This document shows positions 11,234 to 60,981 of a DNA stretch of 64,000 bases, one piece after another. Both the position numbers and the translations under genes were made by a program. Position 1 is the first letter of the stretch. Each line of letters begins with the position of its first letter. This DNA is from Bacteroidales bacterium (GTDB lineage: Bacteria; Bacteroidota; Bacteroidia; Bacteroidales; PUMT01): assembly GCA_007125955.1 (NCBI GenBank), contig SLCF01000031.1, forward strand, positions 31,637 to 95,636, given 5' to 3'. The notes beneath the pieces were generated by a model. That model made no database searches, had not been told where the DNA came from, and saw only the letters and a list, made by a program, of their open reading frames with translations.

Positions 11234-11373
11234 GGTTTTCTGAATATTAACTGACTCAAACCTCATAGTCCCGTCATTAAATTATCAGGGGGTTGAAGCA
11301 CGGCCGTATTAGACAATTGTTCCAATGCAGTGTAAAAATATTTTTTTATTTGATTTCCTGCTAAAAAAATCGT

Positions 11374-14300
11374 CTATTTTTCATCTTCTGAATTAACGGA
11401 GGTGTGTTGCGACTTAGCGCTGCGGATAAGAAAATGGAGCCTGTTCATAACATTAACTCTTGTTGTCCCGGCATCAAAATCAAGATAAAGCAGATTCATT
11501 GAGGGATAAAGATCCCTTATCCTTTTTTCCACACCTTTGGCAATTATGTGATTCGCAATGCATCCAAAAGGCTGCATGCACACAACATGGTTGATTTCCT
11601 CCATTGCAAAACCTGATATTTCAGCCGGTATAAGCCATCCTTCACCAAACTGGTTTGCCAGGTCAACTATACGGGAGGCCTTTTCGGCCTCATCACGAAT
11701 ACTGTACAGCGGACGGTAAAACCTGTAATTCCGCATTACTTTTTCACTTGATTTAATCATTCTGTTTGCAAGCCACTCGGTGAATTCAGCAGAAATATCA
11801 AAATACCTGCCGTAGATCAGGTTCTTTTTAATATTAACCTTTCTGTTGACAAAACCCTGTATCATGAAATCCATCAGCGGAGGAACAACCACCTCAATAC
11901 CGTTTTCTGTGAGCCACCTTACAAGGTCATAATGGCCGTAGGAGTTATATTTCACATATATTTCACCAACAATACCTATTTTTGGCAAAGGGGAAGTATC
12001 GACCGGCAAACTGTTGAATGCATTAACAGCTTCTTTTTGTAAAACAAGCAATCCCTTGTGGTTTTCAGATTCAATTAAAGGAATAGCGGAGTCAATGAAA
12101 CTGTTTACCAGTTGCCGGGCAGCCCCCTTCTCCTTTTCCCTTGATACTGTTGAGTAATACATGGAAGAAAGAGAGTCGGCATAAAGAAGTGAAGCAAAAG
12201 TGATCCTTGCAAGTTTTTTCCAGTCAATTTCAAAGCCGGGCTGCTGATTGAGTGCATCATCTGATCCGGAGATTGAAACAACAGGCACCTCAGCAAAACC
12301 TGCCTCCTTAATTGCCCTTTTTATTAAATTTATATAACTGGTTGCCCTGCACTGGCCTCCGGTCTGCGTTATCCCCACAGCAATCCTGTTCCTGTCGTAT
12401 TTACCCGACTTAAGGGCTTTTACAATATCTCCCACAACAAGCGTAGCAGGATAACATATCTCATTGTTGGCATATGTGAGTCCGATATCTGCTGAAACGT
12501 GGTCTGACGGCGGAAGATTCACAAATCGGTAACCTGCAACCTTTGCCAGAGGGGGAATAAAGGGTGAATAAAAATCGGAAAACCATGGTGCCAGGATTGT
12601 CCTGTCCCGGTCATTTACAGTAAAGGGTTTGTTTTTTAAGTTGTCGCCAGCAACTGCTTTGCTTTGCCTTCCCTGAAGCCTGATTGATTCGACAAGCGAG
12701 CGAATCCTGAGGCGCAGAGATCCCGGGCTTGTAATGTCGTCTATACGGAGAAGAGTGTAGTTCTTCCCTTTTTTCCTGAGGATCTCCGATATCTTTTCGG
12801 TCACAAAGCTGTCAGGTCCGCAACCAAAACTGTTCAGCTGCACAAAGTGTGCATTTGAAGGCATTTCTGCCACTGCAGCGGCAGCCGAAATTATCCTGTT
12901 TGTATAAGCCCATTGACAAACACCATAACCGGCTGAAAAAACCGGATCTGCCGGGTCTGCCAAATGCTCTTCGCTTATTATATCCACATCCATTGAAGAA
13001 AAGATCCCGGAAATTTTGTGCTGAATATAGGGATCGGCATGATAAGGCCTGCCCGCGAGAACAACAATCATCCTGCCTTTTTTCATCGCAGAAAAAAGAG
13101 CCTCCCTGCCAGCAGTGAGGAGCTTCTCATTTACTTTTCTGCTCTCTCTCAAAGCCCTTTCAAAAGCAGTGGCAAACATGCTGCCCTTAACACCCAGTGA
13201 TCTTAAATATTCACGGCACGCCTTTCTGAGCAGTGGAATATCCCTGAATGAGACAACCGGTGCATCAAGCGGTATCGCATGGTTAAGATATGGATTTACT
13301 GAGCTTTTGAGGACTTCAGCGTAACCTGATACGACCGGACAGTTGAAACTATTATCAGCACTGCCGAACTGCTCCTCTTCATATACCACCACAGGAAAGA
13401 ATATCCTGTCAACCTTTCTTTCTGCTAGGCTCACCACATGACCATGCGCCATTTTTGCAGGAAAGCATATATTGTCTGACATCACGGTAACCGCCCCTTT
13501 CCTGTACATATCGTATGTTGAATGCCCTGAGAGTACCACCCTGAACCCGCACCCTTCTAACAATGACTTCCAGAATGGGAAGTTGGAGTACATATTGAGA
13601 ACCCTCGGAACACCAATTGATAAAGCTTTTTGGGCACCTTCATCAACTCTTCGTTCCGTTTTCACTGAGTCCGGAAGAGGTTTCCGCCGCCCCTGTGAAG
13701 TTTCTCCGGCACCATCTTGACTCCCGAAGAGAGTCCGGTATTTATACTCATAATAATTGAAACCGGTTTCCCCTGATGTTCCCTTGTTGTGAAATATCTT
13801 TTCACATTTGTTGCCGGAAAAGTACCTGTTCCCGTTGCGAAACAAAAATTGGGTCACCACACAATGGTTTGTGCATCCCTTACAGCTTATCCTTTTTTCA
13901 GCTTCAAGGTCAATGCCGGTGTCAGGCAAACTGAAAACCTTTCCCGTTCCGTCTTTCATATAACGTTCCCTGGCGTATAAAGCAGCGCCAAAAGAACCCA
14001 TAAGCTCCGGCTGTGCCGGACATGTAACCTTTTTCCCGGTCAGCTGCTGAAGAGCCCTCAATATTGCGGGATTACGGAATGCTCCGCCCTGGGCCACAAT
14101 ATTGGGCCCGAGGTCATCCATTCTGCTTAATTTAAGCACTTTGAAAAGGCAGTTCCGGATAACCGAATATGCAAGTCCTGCAGAAATATCACCGGGAGAG
14201 GCACCTTCCCTGAATGCCTGCTTAACACGTGAATTCATGAAAACCGTGCATCTTGTTCCAAGTTCGGAAGGCTCTGAGGAGTAACAGGCAAGACCGGCAA

Positions 14301-15720
14301 AATCACTTACATTATAACCCAGCGCTGTGGCGAATCCTTCAATAAATGAACCGCAACCTGATGAACAAGCTTCATTTATCTCAATTTTACTAATCCTGCC
14401 CTCTTCAACAAATATAGCTTTCATATCCTGGCCCCCTATATCAAGAACAAATGAGACCTTTTCATCCATACTTATTGCAGCCCTGTAATGAGCAAGTGTT
14501 TCAACTATCCCGTGATCAACATCAAGTGCGGCTTTTAAGAGCTCTTCCCCGTAGCCCGTAACAGCACTACCCCTGATTGAAACATCTGCACCTTTTTCCC
14601 TTATCAGACTGTGGAACTCCGATAGTCCGCGTACAACAGTGTTGAGCGGACTGCCGTTGTTATTGCTGTAAAAATCAAACAGCAACTCATCTTTTTCAGT
14701 AACAACCGTTATTTTTGTAGTGGAGGAACCGGAATCTATACCGAGAAATGCATTAACGGCTTTTCCCTTTTCAAATCCGTACTTTTTAAACGATGATGTG
14801 TAATTTCTCCTTTTCCACTCTTCAAACTCCCCACTCTCTGCAAAAAGAGGTGTGAGACTGCTGTTTTCTTTGTCTGATAAATTATGCGGACGGACAAGCA
14901 ATTCGGCAAGTTGTGACAACTTCATGCAAACATTGCCTCCGGCATTTAAGGCGGCGCCAATAGCAGGAATGAACTGTGCATTTGGCGGAACTGTCATATC
15001 TGACTGCTCTTGTTTCAGTACTTCGGCAAAAACAGCCGGAAGTGACTTTATGAATGTCATTGGCCCACCGGTAAGAAGATAAGGAGGTTTTGCAGTTTTT
15101 CCCCTTGAAAGGGATGTGACAGACTGCAAAGCGACTGCATGAAAAACTGACGCGGCAATGTCGGTCAGCGGTATACGGCGGCTTATAAGGTTCTGAACAT
15201 CGGTCTTTGCAAATACCCCGCATCTTGATGCAATCGGGTAAACAGTTGTGGATTTTTGTGCAAGCTCATCCATCTCTTCAATTGAAACCCCGAGCAGTGA
15301 AGCCATCTGGTCTATGAATGAGCCTGTGCCTCCAGCACAGTTTCCGTTCATCCGAATATCAGGGCCTCTCCTGGAGTGGAAAAATATCATTTTTGAATCC
15401 TCTCCTCCCAAATCCAGTAAAACAGATGTCCCGGGGTAATACTTCTCACAATATGAGGCAGAAGCAACAACTTCCTGCATAAAAGGGATGTTGAAAGTTT
15501 CAGACAATCCCATTCCGGCAGATCCTGTCATATTGGGCCGGATTTTCATGTCACCCAATATTGAAACTGCTTCATGAAGAAGCGACACCAGGGTCTCCCT
15601 TATCAGTGAATTATGCCTTCTGTAACCCTTGTAAACAATATCACCGTTATTACCGGTAACAACCAGCTTAACAGTGGTTGATCCGGCATCAATTCCGGCC
15701 TTTAGATGATGATTATTCAT
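11374..15720 (-). CDS. Four-domain ASKHA activase/reductase fusion, PlsA/Ger-like (acyl-CoA dehydratase activase family)
   Basis: Two activase domains (DAGSTT/DLGGEDSK/NGNCAGGTG/SRCGVF; DSGSSTTK/DIGGQDMK/NEACSSGCG/TRCTVF), a CKGCTNHC linker, and two reductase-like domains (ICFPAK, SFGCGPD; EICYPA, GGQCRA, QPFGCIANH). Confidence 0.85.
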   Translation of the reverse strand: MNNHHLKAGIDAGSTTVKLVVTGNNGDIVYKGYRRHNSLIRETLVSLLHEAVSILGDMKIRPNMTGSAGMGLSETFNIPFMQEVVASASYCEKYYPGTSVLLDLGGEDSKMIFFHSRRGPDIRMNGNCAGGTGSFIDQMASLLGVSIEEMDELAQKSTTVYPIASRCGVFAKTDVQNLISRRIPLTDIAASVFHAVALQSVTSLSRGKTAKPPYLLTGGPMTFIKSLPAVFAEVLKQEQSDMTVPPNAQFIPAIGAALNAGGNVCMKLSQLAELLVRPHNLSDKENSSLTPLFAESGEFEEWKRRNYTSSFKKYGFEKGKAVNAFLGIDSGSSTTKITVVTEKDELLFDFYSNNNGSPLNTVVRGLSEFHSLIREKGADVSIRGSAVTGYGEELLKAALDVDHGIVETLAHYRAAISMDEKVSFVLDIGGQDMKAIFVEEGRISKIEINEACSSGCGSFIEGFATALGYNVSDFAGLACYSSEPSELGTRCTVFMNSRVKQAFREGASPGDISAGLAYSVIRNCLFKVLKLSRMDDLGPNIVAQGGAFRNPAILRALQQLTGKKVTCPAQPELMGSFGAALYARERYMKDGTGKVFSLPDTGIDLEAEKRISCKGCTNHCVVTQFLFRNGNRYFSGNKCEKIFHNKGTSGETGFNYYEYKYRTLFGSQDGAGETSQGRRKPLPDSVKTERRVDEGAQKALSIGVPRVLNMYSNFPFWKSLLEGCGFRVVLSGHSTYDMYRKGAVTVMSDNICFPAKMAHGHVVSLAERKVDRIFFPVVVYEEEQFGSADNSFNCPVVSGYAEVLKSSVNPYLNHAIPLDAPVVSFRDIPLLRKACREYLRSLGVKGSMFATAFERALRESRKVNEKLLTAGREALFSAMKKGRMIVVLAGRPYHADPYIQHKISGIFSSMDVDIISEEHLADPADPVFSAGYGVCQWAYTNRIISAAAAVAEMPSNAHFVQLNSFGCGPDSFVTEKISEILRKKGKNYTLLRIDDITSPGSLRLRIRSLVESIRLQGRQSKAVAGDNLKNKPFTVNDRDRTILAPWFSDFYSPFIPPLAKVAGYRFVNLPPSDHVSADIGLTYANNEICYPATLVVGDIVKALKSGKYDRNRIAVGITQTGGQCRATSYINLIKRAIKEAGFAEVPVVSISGSDDALNQQPGFEIDWKKLARITFASLLYADSLSSMYYSTVSREKEKGAARQLVNSFIDSAIPLIESENHKGLLVLQKEAVNAFNSLPVDTSPLPKIGIVGEIYVKYNSYGHYDLVRWLTENGIEVVVPPLMDFMIQGFVNRKVNIKKNLIYGRYFDISAEFTEWLANRMIKSSEKVMRNYRFYRPLYSIRDEAEKASRIVDLANQFGEGWLIPAEISGFAMEEINHVVCMQPFGCIANHIIAKGVEKRIRDLYPSMNLLYLDFDAGTTRVNVMNRLHFLIRSAKSQHTSVNSEDEK

Positions 15721-15815: not shown

Positions 15816-15823
15816 CAAAATTA
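15816..15823 (-). promoter_or_regulatory. -7 element (TAATTTTG) for the PlsA-like gene
   Basis: Exact TAnnTTTG on the minus strand about 95 nt upstream of the ATG. Confidence 0.45.
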
Positions 15824-18185: not shown

Positions 18186-19262
18186 CTATTTATAGGTTTT
18201 GCTCTCTACTTTCCCGGTTAACACCATATAACCGTTCATTGCAAGTGACTTCATCTCATCTTCACCCGGATAAACAACTACGGGTGCAATGAAAGAAACC
18301 ATATCCCTTACATATTTTACAAGCATATCATTGTATGCTATTCCGCCGGTCAGAATAATAGCGTCAACCTTGCCTTTAAGCACGGCTGACATTGAGCCGA
18401 TCTCTTTTGAAACCTGGTATGACAATGCATCCTGGATGAGCGCTGCTTTTTCATCACCTTCTTTTGCACTTATTTCAACGTCATGTGCATTATTGGTATC
18501 AAGATAAGCCATGTAACCACCCTTTCCTGTTATCATTCTTTTTACCTCTTCCATTGTATAATCCCCACTGAAACAAGTGCTTACAAGAGCGCCGACAGGA
18601 AGTGTCCCCGACCTTTCAGGAGAAAAAGGCCCTTCCCCGTCAAGTGCATTGTTAACATCGATAACCCTGCCCCTGTTATGGGCGCCGACGGATATGCCCC
18701 CGCCCAGATGAACTACAATAAGGCTTAACTCTTCATATTCTCTGTTTGTTGTTTCTGAATAGGCACGTGCAACCGCTTTCTGGTTGAGGGCGTGAAATAT
18801 GCTCATCCTCTTGAATTTCGGATGGCCGCTTATCCTTGCCACTTCCTGCATCTCATCCACAACTACCGGGTCGGCTATAAAAGCCCTTGCACCATCCGTT
18901 CTGGAAGCAATTTCATAAGCAATCAATCCTCCCAGATTGCTCGCATGCTGACCGAGAAACCCTATTCTGAGATCCTCCATCATTTTCTGATTGACCTCGT
19001 ATACCCCTGATTCAATTGGTTTGACCAGTCCGCCTCTTCCGACTACAGCTGAAATATCATTTATGTCTGTACTGGCATTTTCAAGCTCTTTGAGGATAAT
19101 TTCCATCCTGAATTCATACTGATCGGATATATTTTTAAAAGGCTTGAGGTCTTCTGCGGAATGCTTTATATTCTTGAGAAAAACCGACTTGTTATTATTG
19201 TATAAGGCAATCTTAGTAGATGTGGAACCTGGATTGACAGCCAGAATTAACAGATCTTCCAT
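18186..19262 (-). CDS. buk: Butyrate kinase
   Basis: NPGSTSTK, GRGG, HASNLG, FHALNQKA, HLGGGISVG, PERSG, PGEDE. Confidence 0.95.
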   Translation of the reverse strand: MEDLLILAVNPGSTSTKIALYNNNKSVFLKNIKHSAEDLKPFKNISDQYEFRMEIILKELENASTDINDISAVVGRGGLVKPIESGVYEVNQKMMEDLRIGFLGQHASNLGGLIAYEIASRTDGARAFIADPVVVDEMQEVARISGHPKFKRMSIFHALNQKAVARAYSETTNREYEELSLIVVHLGGGISVGAHNRGRVIDVNNALDGEGPFSPERSGTLPVGALVSTCFSGDYTMEEVKRMITGKGGYMAYLDTNNAHDVEISAKEGDEKAALIQDALSYQVSKEIGSMSAVLKGKVDAIILTGGIAYNDMLVKYVRDMVSFIAPVVVYPGEDEMKSLAMNGYMVLTGKVESKTYK

Positions 19263-19427
19263 TGTAAAAAATTTGCTTTATGAATTTTAAAATTTTCTTT
19301 CTCTATTAAGATAAAAAACGATCGTTAACGCTTATAAGTATTCATTAAAACATTGGTCTTATTTATACTGCCGTAACAATATCTCATTCTGTTCTGCGAA
19401 GATATTGAAAATATCTTCCTGAACGAT

Positions 19428-20330
19428 TTATGCTGTTATCGCTGCAAGTGCAATTGAGTAAAGCTTGGTTTTTGATGTGTCTCCTCTTGAAGATAAAACC
19501 ACCGGAACCTTTGCTCCTACAACTATGGCTCCCTGTTCACCTGCTGCCAGCTTTGAATTAGTCTTGTAAAAAATATTACCCGATTCGATATTCGGAAACA
19601 AAAGGCAGTCAGCATCCCCTGCCACCTCACTTTTAATACCTTTGATATCAGCAGAAACCTTATCAACGGCAAGATCAAGCGCCAGCGGGCCCTCTACAAA
19701 TGCATTACCAAACCTTCCCCTCTCAGCCATTTTTGAAATGACAGCCGCATCTGTGCTGGCAGGCATATTGGGTGAAGGCTGCTCTGTTGCCGCTATCAGG
19801 GCTACCTTTGGCTTTTCTAAACCAATTGCCTTTGCGGTGTTTATAAGATGACATGTTTGTGCAATTTTCTGTTTCAGGTCGGGTAGAGGTATAATTGCCG
19901 CATCCGAGATTATCATCAATTTGTGATATACCGGGTTTTCTACAACAGCAACGTGACTAAGTATTTCGTTTGGCACCATCAGTCCGCTCTCCTTGTTGAG
20001 AATCGCTTTCATATATTTCTCCGTTCCAAGATTGCCCTTCATAATCATGTTGCCTTTCCCTTCATTGATGAGTGAAACAGACCTTTCAGCAGCTTCACTG
20101 TCCGATGATACCTGGTCAATGACAAACTTACCTGCATCTATATTAAGTTCTTCACACCTCTTCATTATAGTCTGCCGGTCACCAACCAGAGTTGCATAGA
20201 CAAGACCCAGATCAACCGCTTCATTTACTGCCTCTATAGTGTGGGCATCAACCGCCCAGGCAACAATAAGCCTCTTTTTTTCCTTATCCTTCAGAATACC
20301 AAATAGTTGTTCAAGTTTTTCAATAAGCAT
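19428..20330 (-). CDS. ptb: Phosphate butyryltransferase / phosphate acyltransferase
   Basis: MKG, SDAAI..P, EGPLALDLA, PNIESGN, SRGD; directly upstream of buk. Confidence 0.9.
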   Translation of the reverse strand: MLIEKLEQLFGILKDKEKKRLIVAWAVDAHTIEAVNEAVDLGLVYATLVGDRQTIMKRCEELNIDAGKFVIDQVSSDSEAAERSVSLINEGKGNMIMKGNLGTEKYMKAILNKESGLMVPNEILSHVAVVENPVYHKLMIISDAAIIPLPDLKQKIAQTCHLINTAKAIGLEKPKVALIAATEQPSPNMPASTDAAVISKMAERGRFGNAFVEGPLALDLAVDKVSADIKGIKSEVAGDADCLLFPNIESGNIFYKTNSKLAAGEQGAIVVGAKVPVVLSSRGDTSKTKLYSIALAAITA

Positions 20331-20394
20331 GCCCGTGTAAACTTTTAATTAAACAATTATACTGAATTATTTTGTTCGTTTCTCCTCTTAATGC

Positions 20395-20444
20395 AGTGAT
20401 AAAAAAAAATTACCAAAAGCTTACCTTTGGTAATTTTCTATCAC
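20395..20444 (-). terminator. Terminator after ackA
   Basis: 12-bp stem AAAATTACCAAA/TTTGGTAATTTT (20406-20437) with a T run on the minus strand. Confidence 0.7.
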
Positions 20445-20510
20445 GGGCTTCAAAAAGGCTGCCCGGTTAATAGTGCTATGTATAATTCCCAGTAGAGCAA
20501 AATCCTGATT

Positions 20511-21713
20511 TTACATTTTTGAAATGATCCTCTGTGTATCTTCGGCAATAACAAGCTCCTCATTTGTGGGAACAACCATTATTGTACCCTTTGAGTTATC
20601 CTTGCTTATTATTGCAGTTTCCCCCCGGAGGCCCTTGTTTATATCTTCATCCAGCTCCAGATTGAGGAATCCGAGATTTTCACATATCCCCCTTCTTGTA
20701 TTGCAGGCATTTTCTCCTATACCACCTGTGAATATAAGCAGATCGATTCCTCCCATTGCAGCGGAGTAGGCGCCTATATACTTTTTAACACGGTAATCAT
20801 ACATTTTCAGTCCCATTATTGCCCTTTTATTTTCTTTTTCTGCCTCAATCTCAATTTCCCGCATATCTGAAGATATACCGGTAACTCCGAGCATACCTGA
20901 CTGTTTGTTGATCAGGTTATTCACCGAGCCCAGATCGATCTTTTCCTTAGCCATTAAAAAGGTAAGAACACCCAGGTCAAGATCACCGGTACGGGTACCC
21001 ATTATCAAACCTTCCACAGGAGTAAACCCCATTGAAGTATCAACCGATTTGCCCCGGTCAATTGCTGCAAGTGAAGCACCGTTGCCAAGGTGACACGTAA
21101 TTATTTTCATCCCTTCAATATCCTTGCCAAGGAACTCACACGCCTTTTTTGCAACGAATTTGTGACTTGTCCCGTGAAAACCGTATCTGCGTACTGCGTA
21201 TTTTGTATAAAGCGAATAAGGAATGCCGTACATGTAGGCATAATCCGGCATAGTCTGGTGAAATGACGTGTCAAATACAGCCACCTGCCTTACACCGGGC
21301 AGAAGTGTACGCATTGCATTTATGCCTTTCAGGTTTGCAGGGTTGTGCAGCGGCGCCAGTTCACAACACTTCTCTATCTCACTGTAAGCGTAATCATCTA
21401 TGTAAGTGCTGTCACTGAACTTCTCTCCTCCGTGAGCCACCCTGTGACCAACAGCTTCTATTTCAGACAGGTTTTCAATGCATCCGTGTTTTTTGCTTGT
21501 AAGCACCCCCAGAACAAACTCTATGCCTATCTGGTGGTCTACTATTTCACCGTCAAACTGTACTTTTTCTCCCCCGGGTTTTTCCAGCTTCAGGAATGAT
21601 CCTTTAAGTCCTATCTTCTCAACAATCCCCTTCGCCAGCACATCCTTGGTTACCATGTTGAAAAGCTGATATTTAATTGATGAGCTTCCGCAGTTCAGAA
21701 CCAATATTTTCAT
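20511..21713 (-). CDS. ackA: Acetate kinase
   Basis: NCGSSS, GHRVAHGG, APLHNP, FDTSFH, YGFHGTSH, HLGNGAS, GGIGEN, PTNEE. Confidence 0.97.
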   Translation of the reverse strand: MKILVLNCGSSSIKYQLFNMVTKDVLAKGIVEKIGLKGSFLKLEKPGGEKVQFDGEIVDHQIGIEFVLGVLTSKKHGCIENLSEIEAVGHRVAHGGEKFSDSTYIDDYAYSEIEKCCELAPLHNPANLKGINAMRTLLPGVRQVAVFDTSFHQTMPDYAYMYGIPYSLYTKYAVRRYGFHGTSHKFVAKKACEFLGKDIEGMKIITCHLGNGASLAAIDRGKSVDTSMGFTPVEGLIMGTRTGDLDLGVLTFLMAKEKIDLGSVNNLINKQSGMLGVTGISSDMREIEIEAEKENKRAIMGLKMYDYRVKKYIGAYSAAMGGIDLLIFTGGIGENACNTRRGICENLGFLNLELDEDINKGLRGETAIISKDNSKGTIMVVPTNEELVIAEDTQRIISKM

Positions 21714-21748
21714 TGTATTGTATATTTTTTATCCTTGTTTTAAATCGT

Positions 21749-22720
21749 TTATTTGCAACCTTTAACCTTTTCTTCAATCTTTTTGCCATCCTTGTCGTAT
21801 TCATAAAAACCCCTGGAGGTTTTCATGCCCAGATGGTTTGCCCGCATGTACCTTTTTATTAGAGGATTGGGTTTGTAACGAACGTCTCCAAACTCTTTGT
21901 AAAGGCTCTCCATCCATTGCACTACTTTGTCAAGCCCGATCTTGTCAGCCATTTCAAAAGGTCCGTAATGTGTCCCGATACTTCTTTTGAGAACAGTATC
22001 CACATCCTCTTTTGAAGTAAGGTTTTCCATTACAACCTGGCACGCCTCATTGATTATTACAACGAAAAGCCTTACGCTCACCAGTCCGGGTGATTCGGTA
22101 ACCGTTATAACTTTTTTGTCGAGCATTTCTGCAAAAAGCAGGATTTTTTCATAAACCTCGTCAGAAGTATTAGGCCCGCGTGCCACTTCCAGTATCTTTG
22201 AATCGGGAGTAGTTGTGGAAAAATGTACTGTCAGGCACCTCCCTTTATGCTGAATATCCTCTGAAAGGTCTGTTATCGGAAGTGTTGCAGAATTGGTGAC
22301 AATAATTGTTTCCGGACCGACATGCTTTTCTATCTCACTAAACACTTCTTTTCTTGCTGTAATATTGTCTTTCTGATTTTTAGAAAGGATAGCATCGATC
22401 ACAAGGTCGCAATCCTTAAGGTCTTTATAGGAAACACTGCCTTTTATCCTTGAAAGTATACCCCTCTTCTCCCCTGCGGTCATTTTCCACTGTTCTATCA
22501 ACTGGTCAAGCTCCCTGCCCAACTCATCATATGCTTTTTTTACCAGGTGTTCGCTTTTTTCTACAAACACAACCTCAATGCCGCGGCGACTTATAATTCT
22601 TGCAATTGCCCTGCCTACAGTGCCACATCCTGCAAGACCAATTTTTGAGAACATTGATTTGGGTCTGTTATCCTTTGATAAACCATACTGTTCAATTGAT
22701 TCCTTTAATATATCTGCCAT
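21749..22720 (-). CDS. 3-hydroxyacyl-CoA dehydrogenase family protein with degenerate active site
   Basis: Rossmann GCGTVG and C-terminal GPFEMADKIGLD are present; the HFFNP motif reads HFSTT. Confidence 0.8.
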   Translation of the reverse strand: MADILKESIEQYGLSKDNRPKSMFSKIGLAGCGTVGRAIARIISRRGIEVVFVEKSEHLVKKAYDELGRELDQLIEQWKMTAGEKRGILSRIKGSVSYKDLKDCDLVIDAILSKNQKDNITARKEVFSEIEKHVGPETIIVTNSATLPITDLSEDIQHKGRCLTVHFSTTTPDSKILEVARGPNTSDEVYEKILLFAEMLDKKVITVTESPGLVSVRLFVVIINEACQVVMENLTSKEDVDTVLKRSIGTHYGPFEMADKIGLDKVVQWMESLYKEFGDVRYKPNPLIKRYMRANHLGMKTSRGFYEYDKDGKKIEEKVKGCK

Positions 22721-22754
22721 TGATTCGATTTATTTTTTTGATTTATATAAGATC

Positions 22755-23756
22755 TTAACTGTTTGCTGCCTGGTTCGCAGTGATGGCTGCCAGGTTTACT
22801 ATATCACTTACCGAACAGCCCCTGGAAAGATCGTTTATGGGAGCTGCCATTCCCTGCAGGACAGGTCCTATCGCTTCTGCACCTGCAAGTCTTTGTACAA
22901 GTTTGTATGCAATATTGCCCGACTCAAGACTTGGGAATATCAGCACATTTGCTTTCCCGGCAATTTCACTTCCGGGTGCTTTGCTGTTGCCCACCTTCTC
23001 CACAATGGCGGCATCAGCCTGAAGCTCTCCGTCAATCTTAAGATCCGGAGCCATCTCTTTTGCAATGCGTGTTGCATTAATCACTTTGTCAACCATCTCG
23101 TGTTTTGCACTTCCTTTGGTAGAAAAACTCAGCATGGCCACCCTGGGTTCAAATCCTGCAATAGCCTTTGCGGTACGGGCGGTAGCAACAGCTATTTCAG
23201 CCAACTCCTTTTCGTTGGGATCAGGATGAACCGCACAATCGGCAAATACAAGCATGCCGTCTTCACCATACCCGCCATTCTTGAGTATCATTATGAAAGC
23301 TCCTGAAACAACAGTGATGCCGGGCATAGTCTTTACATATTGAAATGCAGGCCTTAACACATCACCGGTTGCATTCATAGCACCTGCAACTTCACCGTCA
23401 GCATCACCCGCCTTTATCATAAGCGTTGAAAGATAAAGAGGGTTCTCTATCAGTTTTCCTGCTTCTTCACGTGTGAGACCTTTCTTTTTGCGTATCTCAA
23501 CCATCATATCTATATACTTCTCCTTGTTTGGATGATCTGCAGGATTTACAATTTCTGCTGCTGATATATTTGACAAACCAAGTTTTTTTGCCTCCTCTTC
23601 TATTTCCGGACGGTTTCCGATGAGTATTATTTTGGCTATCTTCTCACCAAGTAATACGTCGGCTGCTTTCAAAGTACGCTCCTCAAATGATTCCGGCAAC
23701 ACAATCCGTTTGGAATGCTGTTTGGCACTTATTTTGATTTTTTCCAGTAAATCCAT
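22755..23756 (-). CDS. pta: Phosphate acetyltransferase
   Basis: IVLPES, FADCAV.PDP, MLSFSTKGS, DGELQADAA, GNIAYKL, DLSRGC. Confidence 0.97.
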   Translation of the reverse strand: MDLLEKIKISAKQHSKRIVLPESFEERTLKAADVLLGEKIAKIILIGNRPEIEEEAKKLGLSNISAAEIVNPADHPNKEKYIDMMVEIRKKKGLTREEAGKLIENPLYLSTLMIKAGDADGEVAGAMNATGDVLRPAFQYVKTMPGITVVSGAFIMILKNGGYGEDGMLVFADCAVHPDPNEKELAEIAVATARTAKAIAGFEPRVAMLSFSTKGSAKHEMVDKVINATRIAKEMAPDLKIDGELQADAAIVEKVGNSKAPGSEIAGKANVLIFPSLESGNIAYKLVQRLAGAEAIGPVLQGMAAPINDLSRGCSVSDIVNLAAITANQAANS

Positions 23757-60744: not shown

Positions 60745-60752
60745 TATCTTTG
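60745..60752 (+). promoter_or_regulatory. -7 element (TATCTTTG) for the riboswitch-btuB leader
   Basis: Exact TAnnTTTG directly upstream of riboswitch P1. Confidence 0.65.
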
Positions 60753-60755
60753 CAA

Positions 60756-60981
60756 TTGATTTGGTTTCCCCCGGCCTAACCTGCCGGAGGGATGAAAAGG
60801 GAATCAGGTGCCCCGGATGTCCGGGAATTCCTGAGCAGTACCCGCTGCTGTAAGCTCTTTTAACTTACTGAACACACCTGCCACTGTTGGGTCCCAAACC
60901 CAAAACGGGAAGGCGTTCAGAAAGGGAGCAAGCCAGAAGACCTGCCAGATCAAAACTTTAGTAATGTTCGGGTTAAACATT
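60756..60981 (+). ncRNA. Cobalamin riboswitch (AdoCbl-type with accessory domain)
   Basis: AAAAGGGAA.CAGGTG, CCCGCTGCTGTAA, GCCACTG, GGGAAGG and AGCCAGAAGACCTGCC. P1 TTGATTTGG/CCAGATCAA; candidate P13 at 60963-60981; upstream of a TonB receptor gene. Confidence 0.95.

Follow-up and report, generated by a model that had tools for sequence, protein, structure and literature searches.

What does an enzyme act on when it carries two activase domains fused to a catalytic half that leaves little trace in sequence databases? This question is raised by a long gene on the reverse strand (positions 11374-15720) of the 64,000-nucleotide stretch of Bacteroidales DNA analysed here (contig SLCF01000031.1; the whole stretch is hereafter called the window). 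An earlier note on this DNA had read the product as a candidate PlsA/Ger-type synthase of plasmalogens or alkyl-ether lipids. Our analysis leads to the same reading: two activase domains, a DUF2229 domain, a second HAD-like domain, invariant cluster cysteines, 37% full-length identity to a Listeria protein and placement in a Bacteroidota clade together make it very probable, as far as sequence can tell, that the window protein belongs to the PlsA/Ger family of the BCR/HAD superfamily. With less confidence, yet as the explanation we favour, we propose a self-contained, ATP-driven iron-sulfur (Fe-S) reductase that, under anoxic conditions, would turn the sn-1 acyl ester of a glycerophospholipid, probably phosphatidylethanolamine (PE), into an ether.

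Domain architecture of the window protein

The gene had been described as encoding an Act1-Act2-Red1-Red2 arrangement in 1448 aa. The frame is intact, a protein identical to its translation turned up in the public collection during the homologue search (P0002), and the following parts can be delimited:

11374-15720, reverse strand: complete open reading frame (ORF) of the candidate single-chain PlsA/Ger-family reductase, 1448 aa, with an ATG start and no internal stops
14947-15702, reverse strand: Act1, the first BcrAD/BadFG (HgdC-type) ATPase domain, residues 7-258 (Pfam PF01869)
13972-14745, reverse strand: Act2, the second BcrAD/BadFG ATPase domain, residues 326-583 (Pfam PF01869, PDB sequence matches)
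13804-13884, reverse strand: Cys4 linker, CxxCxxxC...C, with C613, C616, C620 and C639 (alignment conservation)
12667-13617, reverse strand: Red1, DUF2229/HAD-like catalytic domain, residues ~702-1018 (Pfam, alignment, fold matches)
11401-12603, reverse strand: Red2, second HAD-like domain, residues ~1040-1440 (alignment to separate second genes, model, fold matches)

Pfam recognizes PF01869 (BcrAD_BadFG) twice, at residues 7-258 and 326-583 (E 2.6e-72). PF09989 (DUF2229) follows at residues 702-919 with 230 bits, far above its cut-off of 29.4 (E 2.3e-68). This set of domains and its order agree with the PlsA/Ger layout given in the literature (PMC13159169, PMC12838417). Both activase domains carry the phosphate motifs of ASKHA proteins (GIDAGSTTVK and DLGGEDSK in Act1, GIDSGSSTTK and DIGGQDMK in Act2), and the activase modules match the structures of HgdC (1hux) and HadI (4eht) at E 4.8e-26 and 3.4e-24 in a single-sequence PDB search, and at E 1e-53 to 1e-56 when searched with a family profile. 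In NCBIfam, the protein matches only the generic TIGR00241 (‘acyl-CoA dehydratase activase’). Because this is all that NCBIfam offers, public homologues go by ‘CoA-substrate-specific enzyme activase’ or ‘2-hydroxyacyl-CoA dehydratase’—the uninformative labelling that had been anticipated for this family.

Residues 920-1448 gave no Pfam match above threshold and no significant match in the PDB sequence search. With a profile built from the family alignment, the best PDB match to the catalytic half was BzdN at a non-significant E of 2.4, only the activase part being matched, and a relaxed Pfam scan picked up a weak second DUF2229 stretch in Red2. We therefore checked this region by alignment to two-gene versions of the protein and by a fold search.

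In the alignment (26 sequences), the homologues of Fusobacterium animalis and Subdoligranulum variabile are split over two adjacent genes of ~975 and 404-458 aa. The first gene of Fusobacterium reaches as far as residue 1018 of the window protein, the Red1/Red2 junction, and the second aligns with the remainder, such that Red2 is equivalent to a stand-alone second gene in both Fusobacterium and Subdoligranulum. Residues 600-1448 were modelled by AlphaFold2 from 35 sequences, with a predicted local distance difference test (pLDDT) score of 81.9 and a predicted template modelling (pTM) score of 0.83. When the model was compared with the PDB by Foldseek, the 13 best matches were exclusively HadB/HadC (2-hydroxyisocaproyl-CoA dehydratase), BzdN/BzdO (benzoyl-CoA reductase) and DCCP (prob 1.0; E 3.7e-6 to 1.6e-3), later matches being unrelated and weak. 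Taken together, the alignment of Red2 to separate second genes and the fold matches show that the proposed four-part layout is real.

A further two-part homologue occurs in a complete Bacteroidota genome (G271:C8:1232467-1236697), where the break between two adjacent frames lies at query residue 532/533. It thus falls inside Act2, unlike the Fusobacterium split at Red1/Red2, and reflects a frameshift or else a gene fission of another kind.

A double-cubane enzyme of the DCCP type was considered as well. In DCCP, the cysteines of the double-cubane cluster all sit on one catalytic subunit of ~420 aa. The window protein resembles DCCP in fold only (7yyl and 6eno, E 9e-5 to 2e-3), lacks a sequence match to it and has its catalytic cysteines divided three and three; we therefore rejected this candidate.

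Conserved cysteines and a proposed mechanism

The Fe-S cysteines, said to be in place, were compared across 21 full-length homologues from Bacteroidota, Ignavibacteria, Chloroflexota, Desulfobacterota, Bacillota, Actinomycetota and Fusobacteriota. Sixteen cysteines are invariant in this set, and every position listed here is a cysteine in all of the homologues:

Act1: C128, C167 (21/21 homologues)
Act2: C452, C456, C491 (21/21 homologues)
Linker: C613, C616, C620, C639 (21/21 homologues)
Red1: C752, C794, C967 (21/21 homologues)
Red2: C1089, C1124, C1387 (21/21 homologues)

C128/C167 and C452/C491 lie within the two HgdC-like modules and are the candidate cluster ligands; their counterparts in HgdC are C127 and C166, which hold its bridging cluster. 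In Red1 and Red2, the pattern of three plus three cysteines resembles that of the HAD alpha and beta subunits. The Cys4 linker is kept even in both types of distant paralogue introduced below, whereas C456 is lost there; modelled by AlphaFold2 as small beta hairpins at low confidence, the linker is a candidate site for a metal or a cluster.

These features suggest how the enzyme might work. Act1 and Act2 would form an intramolecular HgdC-like pair holding one bridging [4Fe-4S] cluster through C128/C167 and C452/C491. Reduced ferredoxin or flavodoxin would load this cluster, and ATP hydrolysis would push an electron of very low potential into the clusters of a Red1/Red2 pseudo-heterodimer, to which each half could offer its three invariant cysteines in the manner of the HAD alpha and beta subunits. 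There, reduction of the ester carbonyl may proceed through a ketyl-type intermediate, with dehydration then giving a 1-alk-1'-enyl (vinyl) ether. Cluster stoichiometry, lipid substrate and product are what we infer in this scheme. As to the substrate, the genome encodes a phosphatidylserine decarboxylase, so PE should be available and is plausible.

Homologues and phylogenetic placement

Homologues are abundant: more than 7,700 of 8,000 candidates examined matched at E <= 0.001. Besides the identical entry, the best share 67% and ~53% identity with the window protein, and the bulk of Bacteroidota proteins 48-50%; these nearest homologues support Bacteroidota as the phylum of the host, which had been read as one of the Bacteroidales. 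The PlsA-type protein of Listeria monocytogenes aligns over query residues 6-1447 at 37% identity (E 0). It served as our PlsA reference, its phenotype being taken from the literature; in the sources consulted, the gene itself is not genetically validated.

For the phylogeny (LG+G4, 1423 columns), the references were stand-ins: L. monocytogenes, Collinsella aerofaciens, Acetoanaerobium noterae, Fusobacterium, Subdoligranulum and Haliovirga, with a distant paralogue from a genome of the same order as the window (G022) and a two-gene paralogue of Brevibacillus as outgroup. The stand-in sequences come from chromosomes mislabelled as plasmids in PLSDB, in which a number of ‘plasmid’ records, 2-5 Mb in size, are clearly chromosomal (NZ_CP030101.1, NZ_CP154629.1, NZ_CP084075.1 and others).

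The window protein grouped with that of a genus-mate (support in the Shimodaira-Hasegawa-like approximate likelihood-ratio test, SH-aLRT, 100) inside a Bacteroidota/FCB clade (SH-aLRT 99). Sister to this clade stood a pair from Chloroflexota, followed by a metagenome-assembled genome (MAG) of the Desulfohalobiaceae (SH-aLRT 100), while the Listeria, Collinsella, Acetoanaerobium, Fusobacterium and Subdoligranulum proteins formed a clade of their own (SH-aLRT 100). The outgroup paralogues are remote, with 23-26% identity for G022 and 21-29% across the two Brevibacillus genes. Given this placement, the window protein belongs to the core family proper.

Among the window's own genome and 40 close relatives, 10 of the 41 hold a full-length homologue. 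To these ten, the genus contributes each of its three genomes, the remainder of the family 5 of 17, and the order's other families 2 of 21. G022 has the distant paralogue only, at 26% identity in this survey. Within the genus, gene and synteny are conserved across all three genomes (68-75% identity). Of 300 further Bacteroidota genomes, sampled evenly, only four have a homologue. This patchy distribution fits the published record, in which PlsA/Ger homologues occur in ~15% of sequenced Bacteroidota (a figure given in PMC10191378 with reference to Jackson 2021) and the FCB superphylum is listed among the holders of Ger homologues (PMC13159169).

Genome context and expression

The earlier note had seen no dehydratase partner nearby, and indeed the neighbours encode an M14 carboxypeptidase, an acylphosphatase, an S51 peptidase and the fermentation enzymes Buk, Ptb and AckA. 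The same holds for the whole assembly (2.41 Mb, 165 contigs, 90.7% complete), in which a profile search returned no HGD-D (PF06050) match, a single DUF2229 match and no BcrAD domains other than the two fused ones. With neither PF06050 nor another activase or DUF2229 gene in the genome, the C-terminal half of the same chain is the sole partner left to the activase domains: the enzyme is self-contained.

An activator of a separate 2-hydroxyacyl-CoA dehydratase, that is, a stand-alone activase of ~260 aa working with HgdA/HgdB-type subunits, was likewise considered and rejected, given that the genome lacks PF06050 and both activases are fused.

The M14 carboxypeptidase gene follows downstream on the same strand after a gap of 107 nucleotides (11267-11373). 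This gap contains no recognizable terminator and no -7 motif; since a terminator is lacking, the peptidase gene may be co-transcribed with the plsA-like gene. Upstream and divergent lie the acylphosphatase gene, the S51 peptidase gene and a small outer-membrane-like ORF, and beyond them buk, ptb, ackA, an HBD-like gene and pta. Gene order around the window gene is the same in a same-genus MAG.

These neighbours—peptidases, an acylphosphatase and fermentation genes rather than genes of lipid synthesis—are one reason to ask whether the protein might be an ATP-dependent radical reductase or dehydratase of a non-lipid or other substrate, the Bacteroidota clade being functionally distinct from PlsA/Ger. 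The protein is only 37% identical to the Listeria reference, and our literature search found no genetically tested member of the clade. However, homology to the Listeria, Collinsella and Fusobacterium proteins is full-length and co-linear with the same invariant cysteines, the truly divergent paralogues (G022, Brevibacillus) are far more distant and lack C456, and PlsA genes elsewhere, such as that of Listeria, commonly stand alone too. We thus regard a different substrate as quite improbable and continue to favour a lipid ester.

Concerning promoters, the gene had been credited with a -7 element of its own:

15816-15823, reverse strand: TAATTTTG, a match to the Bacteroidota -7 consensus TAnnTTTG, 96 nucleotides upstream of the ATG in the divergent intergenic region

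The element is present, but the frequency of the motif cannot be told from chance (51 occurrences in the window versus 56 expected). Consequently, TAATTTTG is a plausible promoter and does not count as evidence for one. Sigma-70 and terminator scans around the gene returned nothing above shuffled sequences. In a DNA-positive sediment sample, metatranscriptome contigs of at least 99% identity cover portions of the gene and of the genes next to it, which suggests in-situ transcription.

Transcription bears on whether the gene might be an inactive relic—a frame still open whose protein no longer works. Patchiness among relatives (the 10 of 41 genomes above, the window's own included) would fit such decay, as would a homologue from the same order, in a 100% complete genome, that contains one in-frame TAA (L018; G036:C5:48464-52717). 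Against this, the 1448-codon frame is intact with its invariant cysteines and both sets of ATPase motifs, gene and synteny are kept in 3/3 genus genomes, and transcript fragments were recovered in situ; a relic is therefore very hard to credit. The TAA in L018 is itself either a pseudogene mutation or a sequencing error, and is consistent with the patchy distribution.

Two further observations concern the surroundings. The fermentation block (18186-23756, reverse strand) comprises pta, an HBD-like 3-hydroxyacyl-CoA dehydrogenase gene, ackA, ptb and buk, of which the ackA-to-buk part is kept in the same-genus MAG L002. Elsewhere in the window, on the forward strand at 60745-60963, lies a cobalamin riboswitch (RF00174, 104 bits).

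Vinyl ether or alkyl ether

Granted family membership, which ether would be made? A plasmalogen (vinyl ether) is, in our judgement, the fairly probable main product, and a saturated alkyl ether or a mixture the clearly weaker candidate. PE plasmalogens are found in Bacteroides thetaiotaomicron but not in B. fragilis, B. vulgatus or B. ovatus (PMC10056535), and among our control genomes, that of B. thetaiotaomicron matches the DUF2229 and BcrAD profiles. The window protein has the domain string B-B-D-(D), the same as the Listeria protein, and no PF06050 pieces were reported in it even at E up to 10, HMMER filters hiding faint hits. By comparison, Ger proteins have the strings BBDHDDH and BBDHDHDH, a criterion that its authors call unsettled (PMC13159169, PMC13274423). 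The plasmalogens of B. thetaiotaomicron and a Listeria-like string without HGD-D hence favour the vinyl-ether product, only moderately.

A Ger-type glycerol ester reductase would carry the same chemistry on to a saturated 1-O-alkyl ether, possibly at sn-2 as well. The two-activase architecture is common to the validated Ger of Thermotoga maritima and Desulfatibacillum alkenivorans (PMC13159169, PMC13274423), the Bacteroidota clade groups with Desulfohalobiaceae and Chloroflexota (SH-aLRT 100) apart from Listeria, Collinsella and Fusobacterium, and alkyl ethers abound in the membranes of those soda-lake anaerobes that have been studied (PMC8359318, PMC6295475). Speaking against Ger, the only Bacteroidota lipid phenotype that we found in the literature is the PE plasmalogen of B. 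thetaiotaomicron (PMC10056535), and the weak criterion of HGD-D pieces arranged as in the Ger strings gave no reported match at the same relaxed E. We consider this outcome rather unlikely, and a plasmalogen synthase remains our preferred reading.

Several points weigh against that preference. PlsA and Ger can currently not be assigned from primary sequence (PMC13274423), and ether-lipid production by this uncultured organism is a prediction from sequence in the first place. The tree was computed without the characterized PlsA and Ger proteins of Clostridium perfringens, Enterococcus faecalis, T. maritima and D. alkenivorans, none of which was among the matches listed by three homologue searches; the search that started from the Listeria protein was taken up by Paenibacillus and named neither Enterococcus nor Lactococcus, and the one that started from a protein of a Bacteroides sp. 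MAG did not name B. thetaiotaomicron. In the tree, the Bacteroidota clade shares 44-46% identity with the Chloroflexota and Desulfohalobiaceae proteins versus 34-40% with the clade of Firmicutes, Actinobacteria and Fusobacteria that includes plasmalogen producers, and one validated Ger comes from a species of Desulfobacterota (PMC13159169). The B. thetaiotaomicron protein, linked to the window protein by profile matches, is a presumed member of the clade. Lastly, metatranscriptome contigs can hold DNA carry-over, and their depth over the gene is like that over neighbouring genes.

Habitat and implications

The exact sequence is present in metagenomes from salt lakes, soda lakes and alkali sediments, collected over several years and in several studies. 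The fermentation genes buk, ptb, ackA and pta of the window and the sediment habitat are consistent with an anaerobic host. Cultured soda-lake anaerobes of other phyla have ether-rich membranes (PMC8359318, PMC6295475); for Bacteroidota of soda lakes, our literature search found no report of ether lipids.

Neither the family nor its occurrence in Bacteroidota is new, the ambiguity between PlsA and Ger has likewise been described before, and the locus opens no new question. Modestly new is the host, an uncultured haloalkaliphilic lineage of Bacteroidota from soda-lake sediment. What is gained is an annotation—ether-lipid synthase in place of ‘CoA activase’ or ‘2-hydroxyacyl-CoA dehydratase’—and with it the prediction that cells of this lineage carry plasmalogen or alkyl-ether phospholipids. 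This would have a modest bearing on how lipid biomarkers in soda-lake sediments are interpreted, and is relevant to the notion of ether lipids as an aid to anaerobes at high pH and salt (PMC8359318, PMC6295475).

One could go further and suppose that the whole branch of Bacteroidota, Chloroflexota and Desulfobacterota is Ger-like and that the lineage makes base-stable alkyl or alkyl/vinyl ethers, maybe as an adaptation to brines of pH ~10, in which ester bonds are vulnerable; we regard this as unlikely. Were it true, a gene kept with its synteny in 3/3 genus genomes, patchy in the order and rare in the phylum would be a trait selected by habitat. Bacteroidota would then join the bacterial producers of alkyl ethers.

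Comparison with known systems

PlsA/PlsR and single-gene PlsA are established plasmalogen synthases (PMC9702350, PMC12838417). Single-gene PlsA has been validated in E. coli for E. faecalis (EF1327, and plsA of strain K-4), Lactococcus cremoris and Bifidobacterium longum subsp. suis (PMC12838417), and, according to Jackson 2021 as cited in PMC9702350, the orthologues of Listeria seem to work when the cells are grown anaerobically. The window protein shares with these enzymes a single chain of ~1400-1600 aa, the order Act1-Act2-Red1-Red2, two PF01869 domains plus PF09989 and the same invariant cysteines; as in Listeria, its gene stands alone. It differs in belonging to a separate, Bacteroidota-specific clade, the validated E. 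faecalis and L. cremoris sequences themselves lying outside our alignment. Hosts of single-gene PlsA are facultative anaerobes, whereas the window's host is an uncultured, presumably anaerobic bacterium of soda-lake sediment. Moreover, the window gene has no TetR-type regulator upstream, unlike its counterparts in E. faecalis (PMC9702350) and Collinsella. In Collinsella aerofaciens, a TetR-like regulator gene (L007:1-340) directly precedes the PlsA-type gene (L007:352-5133), an arrangement comparable to EF1326/EF1327 of E. faecalis.

In C. perfringens, PlsA/PlsR is encoded by two genes, CPE1194-1195 (Jackson 2021, as relayed in PMC9702350 and PMC8788747). The window protein resembles this system in domain content and in the proposed chemistry, which would consist of two one-electron reductions, protonation and dehydration of the sn-1 ester, and differs from it in being fused into one chain.

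Ger, also described as a ‘modified PlsA’, makes saturated 1-O-alkyl ethers in T. maritima (Tmari_0479) and D. alkenivorans (SHJ90043); it is active only anaerobically, on the sn-1 ester (PMC13159169). Compared by description only, it has in common with the window protein a single chain with two activase domains and DUF2229, while its Pfam string includes small HGD-D (PF06050) pieces, of which none were reported here. Accessions of the characterized proteins are Q8XL48/Q8XL47 for C. perfringens, Q835P9 for E. faecalis and AGL49404 for T. maritima (PMC8788747, PMC13159169 and a 2026 sponge preprint).

More distantly, the window protein invites comparison with the 2-hydroxyacyl-CoA dehydratases HadI+HadBC and HgdC+HgdAB, the class I benzoyl-CoA reductases BzdNOPQ and MbdNOPQ, and DCCP/DCCP-R, with which it shares the principle of ATP-driven electron injection and the HadB/C-BzdN/O-DCCP fold. 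Its catalytic half, unlike those of the HAD and BCR systems, lacks a significant sequence match to PF06050 or to solved structures. It is further set apart from the HAD, BCR and DCCP systems by the fusion of all modules into one chain, by the extra Cys4 linker and by its presumed substrate, a membrane lipid rather than a CoA thioester.

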